From Escherichia phage vB_EcoM_VR25: a DNA stretch of 64,000 nt. Where the stretch lies: sequence record NC_028925.1, one strand, 5' to 3'. The stretch's first letter is position 1. The number at the start of each line of letters is the position of its first letter. Below the pieces are notes generated by a model. That model did not search any database. It was not told the origin of the DNA and was given only the letters and a program-made list of their open reading frames with translations. Position numbers and translations under genes: made by a program. Shown here one piece after another: positions 12,901-33,369 of this stretch.

Positions 12901-14638
12901 GAACTCCGAACAAACGAGCTTCAGACGCGGTGGACCGAATAAAAAGCTTATCGAAGAATTAGCACCACAAAGGAGGGCGGAAGCCCTCTCTGCTGAACAG
13001 AATGATGAACTATCGAATCTGAATACGACTCTTACAAATACTCAGGCTGCGACCGAACTTGTATCGGAAGCTATTGAGGATAAGGGTAATCAGATTATCG
13101 AGAATATCCAAACCAATAATGGAGTCCTCCAGGATATCAGTGCCGGGGTCGAACTGACGGCTGAAGCCACCGAGAAGACTCAACAAGGGATTAAAAACCT
13201 CACGGATATTCTCTCGGATAAGCTCGACAAACTCAGCGCAATGATAAGCGGTAAAATAGGCGTCACGTCTCCTGTGGCTGGTTCTGAAAGCCTTAAACCC
13301 GTTGAGGATGCATTACCAGAGCCTGAAGAGAATAAGCCCACAGCGAGCGTTCCAGCGCTTATACCACCCGAAGAACAAAAGCCAGATGCAGACTTCATAC
13401 CGGAACCGGAGCAGCCAAAGAATGATGCAGAAGGTAAAGAGACTAACACTTGGTCTCTCGGCGATAAGCTTGACACTCTTTCGAAGATAACCGAAAAAGG
13501 ATTTAAGGCATCGGTTTCTGTAGCCGACCGAATCTCAGGGATGCTGTTCAAATACACAATAACTGCGGCAGCAGAAGCAGCTAAATTAATAGGCGGATTA
13601 TTGTTGTTGGTATTCGGTATCGATGCAATACGAGTTTACTTCCAATATTTTATGAAGCAATTTGAAGCTGGTTGGAAAGAATTTAATGATAAGTTCAAAG
13701 AGTGGGGGCCGTTACTCGAAGGATTAATGACTTGGGCTAAGAATGCTGAAGCTATGTTTAGTGAAAGAAATTGGCTTGGGCTGGCAGAAGCTATTATCCG
13801 TGGAATGGTTAACTTAACGAAGAATATGGCTCAACTTCTTATGCTTGGTATTTCAAAATTAATCTCGGCTATCTTAAGTAAAATCCCTGGGATGGGTGAC
13901 CTGGCAGATAATGTGGAAGCCTCTGCGTTGATGTCTTATCAGCAAAACACGGGCGCAGCCCTTGATGATGAAGACCAAACGAAGATAGCTAAGTATCACG
14001 ATAAACGTTCGGCCGAAGCAATGAAAACTGCGGAGAAGATGAATAAGAAGTATAAGGATAAACCTGAACTGATTAATCAAGCCGAAAAATATGGCAATCT
14101 TACCAAGGAACAAGCTGACCAGCTTCGTGCGGGTGGTATTGACACAAGCTTCAGAGACCTTCCAGAAGAAGAACGTCTGGACTATTTCAAGAAGCGTGAT
14201 AAAACCCAAGCCGATATTATTCGTTTAACCCAGACTGCAGATAACTTAATGAAGCCAGATGCAACCGATAAAAAGAATGCTGAAGCCTCATATAAAGCAA
14301 TCCAGGAACAGTTGGCTGACCCTGTTATGGCAAAAGGTGGAGCCCCGAAAGACCTTAATATGCATGCCCTCCTGGAAAAACTCGATAAGTCTCTTGAGAA
14401 GTTCAAAGACGAACCGAAAGTTAAACCACCTGATGTTAAGGCTTCTCCGGATGCACAACAAGCTGCGAAGGTTGACGAAGGCATGAAGGCCAAAGAAAAT
14501 AAATACAAGGATGCACCAGCTAATGCGCAAATTAACACGGTCAATAATATTCAGAAGACTTCCAGGACGCAATACAATATGCCTCCTCAAAGTTCAACCC
14601 CTGCCCCTGGCATGAGACAGGCCACGAGAATTAACTAA
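12893..14638 (+). CDS. 29: baseplate hub subunit / tail length determinant gp29
   Basis: 581 aa, coiled-coil/low-complexity rich; size and synteny. Confidence 0.8.
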   Translation: MNKNSEQTSFRRGGPNKKLIEELAPQRRAEALSAEQNDELSNLNTTLTNTQAATELVSEAIEDKGNQIIENIQTNNGVLQDISAGVELTAEATEKTQQGIKNLTDILSDKLDKLSAMISGKIGVTSPVAGSESLKPVEDALPEPEENKPTASVPALIPPEEQKPDADFIPEPEQPKNDAEGKETNTWSLGDKLDTLSKITEKGFKASVSVADRISGMLFKYTITAAAEAAKLIGGLLLLVFGIDAIRVYFQYFMKQFEAGWKEFNDKFKEWGPLLEGLMTWAKNAEAMFSERNWLGLAEAIIRGMVNLTKNMAQLLMLGISKLISAILSKIPGMGDLADNVEASALMSYQQNTGAALDDEDQTKIAKYHDKRSAEAMKTAEKMNKKYKDKPELINQAEKYGNLTKEQADQLRAGGIDTSFRDLPEEERLDYFKKRDKTQADIIRLTQTADNLMKPDATDKKNAEASYKAIQEQLADPVMAKGGAPKDLNMHALLEKLDKSLEKFKDEPKVKPPDVKASPDAQQAAKVDEGMKAKENKYKDAPANAQINTVNNIQKTSRTQYNMPPQSSTPAPGMRQATRIN

Positions 14639-30780: not shown

Positions 30781-31074
30781 TCAATCATGACAACGCTCCT
30801 CTTTTAGTTCAGAACGATAATAACATAACATACCTTTTTGGTCATGTACATATCTTTTTACATCATTCATCCAAATCCGGAATTCTTGCGATGCTTCAAA
30901 AGGCATACCAACCCATGGTTGACCGTCAATTACCTTCACTTCCCATTGCTGACGGTATTCCATTAATGTCTGTGGCCAATTAGGATGAACTTGAATTGTG
31001 GGCTCCACAACGGGCTTCTGGGCGCATGAAACAAGTCCAATAGCCAAACATACTGCCATGATAGATTTCATCAT
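30781..31074 (-). CDS. o-spanin (outer-membrane lipoprotein spanin subunit)
   Basis: 97 aa; lipoprotein-type signal MMKSIMAVCLAIGLVSCAQ; immediately downstream of i-spanin-like gene with 4-nt overlap; T4 pseT.2-equivalent position. Confidence 0.6.
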   Translation of the reverse strand: MMKSIMAVCLAIGLVSCAQKPVVEPTIQVHPNWPQTLMEYRQQWEVKVIDGQPWVGMPFEASQEFRIWMNDVKRYVHDQKGMLCYYRSELKEERCHD

Positions 31075-31424
31075 TTGGTGAGCTCCTGGAAGTCCTGGGC
31101 GAACTTATCAAATGACTGGTTAATTTGTTTTTCAACTAATTTAGGCTTAGCTGCCACAACCTTAGTACGTTTTGCATCTGCACGAAGTTTATCATTTTCC
31201 TTCTGCAGAAGTTCAACATATTCCTGGCGCTCCTGGTCAAGGAGATTAATTTGATTGACCTGGTCTTTTATTGATTGCAGATTTTTCGCGTTATCTTCTG
31301 CAACTTTGGTGACCGCAGCCACCTCTGTCTTGAGATTATCCACTTTTGCTTTTAGATAGAAACCACTACCAGCAGTTACTACCAGGGCGAGCATAAGCCC
31401 CGCAGTGATATTACTTATTTGCAT
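31071..31424 (-). CDS. i-spanin (inner-membrane spanin subunit)
   Basis: 117 aa; N-terminal TM helix (ITAGLMLALVVTAGSGFYL) then coiled-coil-like periplasmic part; T4 pseT.3-equivalent position. Confidence 0.6.
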   Translation of the reverse strand: MQISNITAGLMLALVVTAGSGFYLKAKVDNLKTEVAAVTKVAEDNAKNLQSIKDQVNQINLLDQERQEYVELLQKENDKLRADAKRTKVVAAKPKLVEKQINQSFDKFAQDFQELTK

Positions 31425-31918
31425 AACTTGATGATTACCTCAACAATATCATCCTGGGATAAACCATTCAGGAGGATGTGATTTGTACTGTCAGATGCTG
31501 AAATGCGGAACTGATTACCAACTTCATCCGCCATATCATCCTGGGTTAACACTGGGTGCTTAATTCCCAGGCGGTGTTGAAGTGTCAGGGGTTCAACCAC
31601 AACATAACAAACACATCCATTGATATGCACATTAGGTTGGGTCTGATTGATGAACACTTCTGCATCATATTTAACCAAATGGTTCTTTAAGAAGTCAACC
31701 ATTTCAGGAACAGATTCATGAAGGGCTTCTTTCCGCTCTTCTGATTTCTTATTGCGATATTCCTTCTGTTTGGTCTTCAACTTATTATCAGACGCCAGTT
31801 TCTTTCTTAAGTCAGTAAGGAACCCAACATTTTTGGAACCTTTATAAACATAGATTCCGTCATGGCGGTCACCATATACATCAACAATCATATCATTTGA
31901 AATCAGTTGCATATTCAT
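31415..31918 (-). CDS. hypothetical protein at the T4 alc position (167 aa from MNMQLIS)
   Basis: ORF 31415..32017 with start probably at internal Met; size equals remembered T4 Alc (167 aa) but sequence identity not verifiable by eye. Confidence 0.45.
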   Translation of the reverse strand: MNMQLISNDMIVDVYGDRHDGIYVYKGSKNVGFLTDLRKKLASDNKLKTKQKEYRNKKSEERKEALHESVPEMVDFLKNHLVKYDAEVFINQTQPNVHINGCVCYVVVEPLTLQHRLGIKHPVLTQDDMADEVGNQFRISASDSTNHILLNGLSQDDIVEVIIKLCK

Positions 31919-31928
31919 AATATTTTCC

Positions 31929-32162
31929 TCAATAGCGGTTATAACCTCTAGGACCAAAAGAGTTTGCACCCAGGCGCTCATCTTTCTTTTTGGCTCTTGC
32001 TCTAAACCCAGAATCACCTGTTTGGTCTTTCAGTTCTTTTAACAATTTGGCCTTCAGGTCAGTAATGAAACCAATCCGGCGGTCTCCCTTGTAGACATAG
32101 ATTCCATCATTTCTGTCACCATATGCCTTTGTAACTCTGTCATTTGAAATTAAGTTTAACAT
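31929..32162 (-). CDS. short paralog of the N-terminal ~40 aa of the alc-position protein
   Basis: ORF 31929..32195; LISNDRVTKAYGDRNDGIYVYKGDRRIGFITDLKAKL aligns with LISNDMIVDVYGDRHDGIYVYKGSKNVGFLTDLRKKL of the next gene. Confidence 0.4.
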   Translation of the reverse strand: MLNLISNDRVTKAYGDRNDGIYVYKGDRRIGFITDLKAKLLKELKDQTGDSGFRARAKKKDERLGANSFGPRGYNRY

Positions 32163-32232
32163 GTTTTGGTCCTCATCAGTAGTTGATGGAACCATTATGT
32201 ATAGAAAGAAGGGGCTTGTACACCCCTTTTTA

Positions 32233-33369
32233 TTATTCAGGCATGATTACATCCGCTTGGTAGTCCGCTGGGATGTAAAGTTTATGATTTTTAAGGAAAA
32301 CATTATTGATTTGAGCGATAGTTTGCTCTGTTTCCTGGGGACGTTGATATGTGTTCATTAATACAGAGAACAAACCCGGATATGGTTTACACAGTTCTTG
32401 ACCTTTAATCGCAAACTCGCGTCGGTCTTTTCCTGCCAACTGTTTCTGGGCATCAAGCAACAGTCCCAGGGTATTGGACAGATAATCCAGATGGGTCAAA
32501 GTAAAGGCATTAACTTTTTCACGAGCATAATCATCGCCAGTAAACATGGCAATAACATCATCTGCACCGCCTGCAACAACAACTTCAAAAAGACGCTGGT
32601 TATTGTTAACAGAATCCTTTGTATGGTGTAAAGCACAATACCATTCTGTCTTAACTTTAAATTTGCGACCATCGACCAGCTCATAGACAAAGCCTTCAAT
32701 CTCTTTCATATCACGGACGTTTTCAATTGTAGCCGGGTCATATGCTTCAACCAGGAATGGACGAAGCGCTGCATCTTTAAACAAATCCTGATAAGGGATA
32801 TATTCACCAGTTTCATTATGGCGAACGTTCAGTAAAATCAGGTCACGTTCCTGGTAAGGCAAAACAATGCGGTTGGTTGGTGCAACATATTCCATATTGC
32901 ATGTATAACCAGCTTCAGTAATTTCAGTTACACGCTCACGGAAAGCTATACGGTGTTCTTGTTTGAATACCTGCAGGGCTTCTGCTGCCTGGGAGCTTTT
33001 GATTGACCCTTTGGATTTAAAAGCAATATTGGTCTGGTCCATATAAGTGGAGACAAGAGAGCCATCAGCCTTGGTCATGACCAGCGCAACTTCATCCATA
33101 TTGATATTCATGGTCAACGGATTTTCGCCCAAGTTAAAGAACTTTTCCATAGGACGAGCCGCAATACGAACTGGACCATCTGCATCCATTTCAAACATAA
33201 TGCCGCGACATTCAAGTGCATCATCAAGGAGCCAATCACTATAGGAAGCATAGTTATAGCTAAAGATACGGAACTTAGTTTCAAATGGAGAAACGAAATC
33301 AGTATAGAAAAACTTACCTTTTTCAGATTCAGCGCACAGCTTCATTAAGTTGTCATATAATTCAATCAT
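32233..33369 (-). CDS. rnlA: RNA ligase 1 (Rnl1)
   Basis: 378 aa; KxDG adenylation motif (MTKADGSL); size and synteny. Confidence 0.85.
   Translation of the reverse strand: MIELYDNLMKLCAESEKGKFFYTDFVSPFETKFRIFSYNYASYSDWLLDDALECRGIMFEMDADGPVRIAARPMEKFFNLGENPLTMNINMDEVALVMTKADGSLVSTYMDQTNIAFKSKGSIKSSQAAEALQVFKQEHRIAFRERVTEITEAGYTCNMEYVAPTNRIVLPYQERDLILLNVRHNETGEYIPYQDLFKDAALRPFLVEAYDPATIENVRDMKEIEGFVYELVDGRKFKVKTEWYCALHHTKDSVNNNQRLFEVVVAGGADDVIAMFTGDDYAREKVNAFTLTHLDYLSNTLGLLLDAQKQLAGKDRREFAIKGQELCKPYPGLFSVLMNTYQRPQETEQTIAQINNVFLKNHKLYIPADYQADVIMPE

Follow-up and report, generated by a model that had tools for sequence, protein, structure and literature searches.

The 77-residue reading frame between rnlA and the transcription-termination gene alc in this phage is very probably a real gene, alcb, whose product has the first ~45 residues of Alc in common and then runs into a basic, strongly conserved tail of its own. 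The best explanation overall, to which we assign a probability of roughly one half, is that AlcB is a translated early protein acting as a second effector on the docking module of Alc. The DNA analysed (the window, 64,000 nucleotides) belongs to a Gaprivervirus; the region shares 98.7% identity with Escherichia phage vB_EcoM_VR7 and 90–98.5% with the remaining matching records, all of which are Gaprivervirus-type (32 records in total).

All genes of the stretch lie on the minus strand, in the order rnlA, alcb, alca, pseT.3, pseT.2. The upstream neighbour rnlA (RNA ligase 1; 32233–33369) carries the Pfam domains RNA_lig_T4_1 and T4_Rnl1_C and is annotated as rnlA in VR7 and SP18. As a preliminary description of this DNA had reported, the short ORF, alcb, runs from 32162 to 31929 (77 aa plus stop) and the long one, alca, which is alc, from 31918 to 31415 (167 aa). 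A programmatic ORF list contains an 88-aa version of alcb starting at an upstream ATG at 32195, which SP18-type genomes do not have. Downstream, alca runs 10 nt into the i-spanin gene pseT.3 (31071–31424; overlap 31415–31424), and pseT.3 in turn overlaps the spanin gene pseT.2 (30781–31074) by 4 nt, so that no gap of more than 10 nt separates neighbouring genes from alcb to pseT.2.

The long protein had been named as Alc only conditionally, and the identification stands. It matches the Pfam family ALC (PF17527) from end to end (173.5 bits, E 4.3e-51, profile positions 1–176) as well as phrog_1253 (E 4e-75), it is 57% identical over 166 aa to Alc of the T4-type phage RB32, and its gene occupies the place between rnlA and pseT.3 that alc has in T4-type genomes. 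It is thus a full-length homologue of the T4 termination factor, with the complete family architecture of ~165–170 aa: an N-terminal module, a long helix and a C-terminal domain. In an AlphaFold model built on 30 family members (pLDDT 93), the N-module (codons 3–41, 31796–31912, minus strand) is predicted to consist of a helix at residues 8–15 and a hairpin at 23–33 (strands 23–26 and 29–33), followed by a 47-residue helix (34–80) and an α/β C-terminal domain (87–166), the last two together spanning 31421–31819. Searches found no sequence relatives of Alc among solved structures (best E 0.3). The best structural match to the modelled C-terminal domain is the DNA-binding, C-terminal domain of MotA, which is suggestive of a MotA-like fold. 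T4 MotA is a two-domain transcription factor, with an N-terminal domain that binds sigma-70 and a C-terminal domain that binds DNA.

The kinship of the two genes is clear at the protein level. BLASTP aligns alcb with Alc at 31/62 identical residues (50%, 68% positives) with an E value of 2e-18, far beyond chance, and the core segment quoted in the preliminary description has 24 of 39 residues identical between alcb and alca. Pfam ALC also recognises alcb, at 37.1 bits (E 3e-9) and over profile positions 3–62 of 177 only; both proteins thereby exceed the curated cut-off of 25 bits. Throughout the common stretch, alcb retains every residue that is invariant in the Alc family (I, G, D-G-I and G) together with a nearly invariant D-L, and a family alignment places the end of the homology near residue 45.

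The DNA resemblance of the two copies, which had also been remarked upon earlier, is real but moderate, and unlike that of a recent duplication. Codons 2–40 of alcb (32043–32159, minus strand) agree with their alca counterparts at 74/117 nt (63%), and in a self dot-plot the exact 9-mer runs merge into identical blocks of 10–11 nt at a single offset of 247 nt. The differences fall on first, second and third codon positions in the proportion 16/8/19, and since about half of the third positions have changed (19/39), the copies are old. A further 12-mer, AAGACCAAACAG, recurs at an offset of 252, out of frame; it is marginal against shuffled sequences (48/2000) and hints that, in a shifted frame, the DNA homology may reach as far as codon ~48. 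Taken together, these comparisons show alcb to be an old tandem paralogue of the N-terminal part of Alc. The distance of alcb from its neighbour alca (24/39) is about that from T4-type Alc (23/39), and neighbour-joining on the first 48 residues groups the alcb proteins with a bootstrap of only 45%, at an attachment point that is unsupported; 48 residues of sequence cannot decide between local duplication and acquisition from another phage. The idea that the alcb tail is a copy of a promoter or leader was rejected: when the 70 nt preceding alcb were locally aligned with the 72 nt preceding alca, 1491 of 2000 shuffles equalled or exceeded the score.

What alcb has kept of its larger relative is predicted to be a compact unit of ~45 aa, comprising a short helix (residues 7–14), a β-hairpin (22–32) and the first turns of the long helix. 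The AlphaFold model of AlcB is confident only for this N-module and the first helical turns (pLDDT ~90 for residues 11–40); residues 46–50 are still modelled as helix, and residues 51–77 fall below 50 and are predicted to be disordered. Missing are the entire C-terminal domain and all but the first few residues of the long helix, ~120 of the 167 residues of Alc, so that alcb would correspond roughly to the part of Alc outside the MotA-like region. Beyond the homology, codons 46–77 (31932–32027, minus strand) encode a tail unrelated to Alc, rich in Arg and Lys and also containing Gly, Pro and aromatic residues (RARAKKKDERLGANSFGPRGYNRY), in agreement with the basic tail described before. Termination activity should not be assumed for AlcB, which has a different architecture and its own C-terminal peptide.

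The preliminary description had left room for the short ORF being a duplication remnant, and comparison of related genomes speaks against this. Across a conservation set of 15 genomes (the window and 14 further records), alcb is intact in 15/15, always 77 aa long and free of stops and frameshifts, while varying as 13 DNA alleles and nine protein variants. Third positions of the alcb frame hold 16 of the 23 variable sites and dN/dS is ~0.10, indicating that alcb is under purifying selection. A non-functional remnant might still appear conserved through its overlap with the expression signals of alc, as alcb occupies what would otherwise be the alc 5′ leader and ends within the alc Shine–Dalgarno sequence. 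Such an overlap would not explain the codon-position pattern, nor the retention of protein length and C-terminal motif between lineages in which the alcb proteins are only 46–49% identical, and we regard a remnant as very improbable. A single disrupted copy was encountered: P0002, a 75-aa sequence from an ENA contig, is a Gaprivervirus-type alcb whose tail after GFRA is replaced by out-of-frame sequence.

We also followed alcb through related phages, as had been proposed. Searched in translation with alcb, 50,697 phage records gave 823 places in 789 of them, implying that ~34 records hold a second match; a full-length match was present in only 33. All of the GenBank genomes with a full-length second copy (33–34) are Gaprivervirus-type, and none of the other records searched contains full-length alcb. 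In the Dhakavirus (JS98, VR5) and Tequatrovirus (RB32) records examined, alc stands alone directly after rnlA, followed by pseT.3 and pseT.2. A full scan covering 1.84 billion representative proteins, combined with a profile search, returned three more short homologues (P0035, P0044 and P0045) of 77–78 aa that are 46–49% identical to alcb over its full length. These are encoded on four metagenomic contigs (L018, L019, L020 and L027) representing three uncultivated lineages. On L018 and on L019/L020, which make up two of these lineages, the short gene lies between rnlA and a 167-aa Alc; on L027 it lies just after a 206-aa ORF, and the contig stops short of any alc. On the other contigs, the adjacent Alc is 79–80% identical to that of the window, and comparison with the 46–49% seen for the short proteins identifies alcb as the faster-evolving gene, which has nevertheless kept its length, core and motif. 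Lineages in which Alc is only ~62% identical have no short gene.

Other database hits were set aside. Several long repetitive proteins that scored against alcb in the scan of representative proteins (P0034, P0037–P0039, P0041 and P0043) are compositional artefacts with many 20–42% stretches; a Pfam scan of them returned scattered unrelated families, and nearly none had a stretch that passed alone. A 63-aa public protein, P0040, is a T4-type Alc cut after residue 48 by a change of frame (DLAKQVKR followed by VLLKVLEWNICSVSS), which probably reflects a mutation in alc or faulty assembly rather than an alcb-type gene.

The tail is the most constrained part of AlcB. Codons 41–77 have a dN/dS of 0.04, and residues 49–77 are invariant in the 15 genomes. 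An alignment of four lineages (the window, P0035, P0044 and P0045) defines a conserved C-terminal peptide, R63–Y77 in the window (RLGANSFGPRGYNRY; 31932–31976, minus strand), from which we derived the family motif R-x-G-x-N-[ST]-F-G-P-x-x-x-N-[KR]-[FY]-COOH. Six-frame translation of the window yielded no second tail motif. Together with a PHROG of its own, the occurrence of homologues with the same motif in three lineages marks alcb as a family and not an accident. Such constraint would also be expected if AlcB worked independently of Alc and RNA polymerase, with the N-module as a mere scaffold and the basic tail and C-terminal peptide as the effector, for instance in binding nucleic acid or a host protein; the Arg/Lys-rich composition, the predicted disorder and the persistence of the motif across lineages would all suit such a role. 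Against this reading, all residues invariant in the N-module of the Alc family have been retained after long divergence, and alcb stays joined to alc through a coupled junction wherever the downstream gene is on the contig, which a shared pathway explains more easily. On balance, a role independent of Alc seems rather unlikely to us.

The arrangement of expression signals suggests that alcb and alc are expressed together. Between rnlA and alcb, a putative control region (32194–32228, minus strand) contains a promoter-like site of the sigma-70/T4-early type, with TGTACA as -35 (32222–32217), a 17-nt spacer and CATAAT as -10 (32199–32194) in a consensus scan. The site is weak, agreeing with 9/12 consensus positions, and the number of promoters scored is no better than in shuffled sequences. 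Its placement, on the other hand, aligns with an early-type promoter (GTTTAC...TAnnnT) immediately preceding alc in JS98, VR5 and RB32, and with a GTTTAC-type element upstream of alcb in L018–L020, so that a promoter function may be inferred. A terminator-like hairpin following rnlA (AAGGGGTGTACAAGCCCCTT and then CTTTCT) overlaps the -35 of this site; its GC-rich stem occupies 32228–32209, ahead of a T-rich run, and it is missing from the matching spacers of JS98, VR5, RB32 and L018–L020.

Signals for translation are similarly placed in the relatives. A Shine–Dalgarno sequence, GAGG (32171–32174, minus strand), precedes the alcb ATG by 8 nt, and the surrounding GTGAGG is also found in L018–L020. 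At the other end of the gene, the alcb stop codon (31931–31929) overlaps the Shine–Dalgarno of alca within the sequence TGAGGA (31926–31931, minus strand), and the alca ATG follows 10 nt past the stop. This stop-in-Shine–Dalgarno junction recurs in L018, L019 and L020, that is, in every lineage with a readable junction, and SP18-type genomes have a 13-nt alcb–alca spacer that contains TGAGGA. The junction would be consistent with translational coupling of alcb and alc and, combined with the promoter position, makes early co-transcription and coupled translation likely. A fusion of the two frames by programmed +1 frameshifting, giving an Alc with two N-modules, was also considered: relative to alcb, alc always occupies the +1 frame, and in the window and L019/L020 this frame stays open for 33–37 codons ahead of the alc ATG. 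The same frame is open for only 7 codons in L018, which contradicts such a fusion; moreover, the peptide encoded in the overlapping frame is not conserved among Gapriverviruses, and no +1 shift site was identified, the sole slippery-like run (C AAA AAG) leading to a -1 shift that meets a stop after two codons. We consider a fusion product extremely improbable.

How AlcB might act is best approached through what has been reported for Alc. T4 Alc associates with Escherichia coli RNA polymerase, and paf mutations at β-subunit residues R368 and P372 block it, placing Alc, if bound at this site, where it could read downstream or non-template DNA (PMC2939025). The protein ends transcription by the host polymerase on cytosine-containing DNA and not on hydroxymethylcytosine-containing DNA (PMC2988021, PMC2939025), and its working mechanism is described as still to be explained, with no domain assignment (PMC2988021). 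Our proposal combines these reports with the architecture of the two proteins. AlcB and Alc would be made together, early, from one transcript and through coupled translation, and the shared N-module would act as the docking part that brings both to the same partner, most likely the elongation complex of the host RNA polymerase at the β-subunit site marked by the paf mutations. Whether the DNA carries plain cytosine would be read by the MotA-like C-terminal domain, which is missing in AlcB, and AlcB would compete with Alc for the shared site, or pair with it there, while its conserved tail peptide makes a separate contact. On this reading, AlcB could not itself carry out cytosine-specific termination, for it has no C-terminal domain. 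As a mechanism, a polymerase-directed second effector that competes or pairs with Alc and adds a contact through its tail is a possibility that we put forward tentatively. The role of modulator suggested in the preliminary description is plausible for AlcB.

One observation sits awkwardly with docking to a host surface. Within Alc of Gapriverviruses, variation is greatest in the N-module, which fits poorly with the binding of a conserved host surface; the module could alternatively be an oligomerisation element or purely structural. Nucleotide diversity over the 15 genomes peaks at 31757–31876 (alca codons ~15–54), where π reaches 0.17 compared with ~0.02 nearby. The peak contains two N-module haplotypes of Alc, ...DVYGDRHDGIYVYKGSKNVGFL... 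and ...NEYGDRHDGIYVYKGTKKIGLM...; changes between them are mostly synonymous (dN/dS 0.11), suggesting import by recombination. Both the C-terminal domain of Alc and the N-module of alcb are far less variable than the Alc N-module, and the dN/dS of 0.03 in the Alc C-terminal domain reflects very strong purifying selection.

A short protein formed from the terminal module of a larger one, encoded beside its parent, probably co-expressed with it and lacking the presumed effector domain, recalls the microproteins and truncated dominant-negative paralogues. AlcB might accordingly be a pure antagonist of Alc that takes its docking site or forms dead-end heteromers, lowering termination, and that could protect phage DNA in a lineage which lost hydroxymethylcytosine synthesis. 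Several observations would accommodate this: AlcB has an interaction-type module without the putative DNA-reading domain, alcb lies upstream of alc in what is likely the same transcript, full-length second copies in GenBank are limited to the 33–34 Gaprivervirus-type genomes, and Gaprivervirus has no gene 42 or glucosyltransferases and retains alc, denB and dCTPase (PMC12115623; PMC8056088). Yet a passive blocker would have no need of the tail peptide, which does not vary across 15 genomes and is kept among proteins of 46–49% identity; the conservation of this peptide implies that AlcB does more than passively block a site, and this extra motif, by which AlcB differs from microproteins, may point to a gain of function over simple interference. 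The dN/dS of the Alc C-terminal domain, furthermore, argues that Alc is still needed, Acinetobacter phages ZZ1 and 133 and Aeromonas phages without known hydroxymethylcytosine genes keep Alc (PMC8056088), no full-length alcb was found in GenBank outside Gaprivervirus-type records, and a correlation at the level of one genus amounts to one evolutionary event. For these reasons, we judge a purely antagonistic AlcB unlikely.

That the short gene is restricted to Gaprivervirus among sequenced isolates nonetheless prompts the thought that it may fit Alc to a different chemistry of the DNA. The genus has neither dCMP hydroxymethylase nor the two glucosyltransferases and keeps alc, denB, denA and dCTPase, and the base chemistry of its DNA has been called unresolved (PMC12115623, PMC8056088). 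In the annotation of VR7 (record positions 14000–40000), the gene orders uvsX–ORF049c–42.1–imm–43 and 47–a-gt.2 are found; gene 42, beta-gt and alpha-gt are not annotated at their T4 positions in this interval, and gene 56 (dCTPase) is present. AlcB might then retune or gate Alc at the polymerase so that phage DNA is spared, letting a T-even lineage without hydroxymethylcytosine keep Alc, a scenario that we consider a long shot. If true, Alc would for the first time be divided by function, into a module for docking and a MotA-like domain for reading DNA.

The gene itself is already annotated and catalogued in public databases, and the locus shows no new kind of system. The record of Shigella phage SP18 names both alca and alcb and describes the latter as ‘similar to N-terminal region of bacteriophage JS98 Alc’; the VR7 copy, VR7ORF243c, is labelled ‘inhibitor of host transcription’ in RefSeq. 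The window gene is the same gene as these two, with 94–100% protein identity, the same position and length and no structural difference. It also matches its own PHROG family, phrog_17715, end to end (E 3e-54, positions 1–77 of 77), and displays the C-terminal motif and the stop-in-Shine–Dalgarno position upstream of a full-length alc; P0035, from another lineage, matches the same family (E 5e-20). This PHROG likewise bears the name ‘inhibitor of host transcription’, which would imply a function for AlcB. Literature searches found no papers on alcb or on an alc duplication and none assigning domains to Alc, and no proteomic or ribosome-profiling data on these phages were found.

The interest of alcb lies largely in what it offers for understanding Alc, a 19-kDa protein that stops RNA polymerase on cytosine-containing but not on modified DNA by a mechanism unexplained since 1993. 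AlcB is a natural, selected instance of the Alc N-module alone and hence a ready reagent for asking what this module binds, while the predicted MotA-like C-terminal domain provides a concrete hypothesis for DNA sensing by Alc. The function of alcb may additionally bear on how Gaprivervirus discriminates its own DNA from that of the host.

A final observation concerns the C-terminal domain of Alc. An exact 13-nt direct repeat, CCCAGGATGATAT, is present twice inside alca, at 31545–31533 and 31458–31446, 87 nt apart. Each copy encodes the QDD(M/I) start of one of the two helices of the C-terminal domain (LTQDDMADEV and LSQDDIVEVI), and the repeat may be a trace of internal symmetry in this domain.
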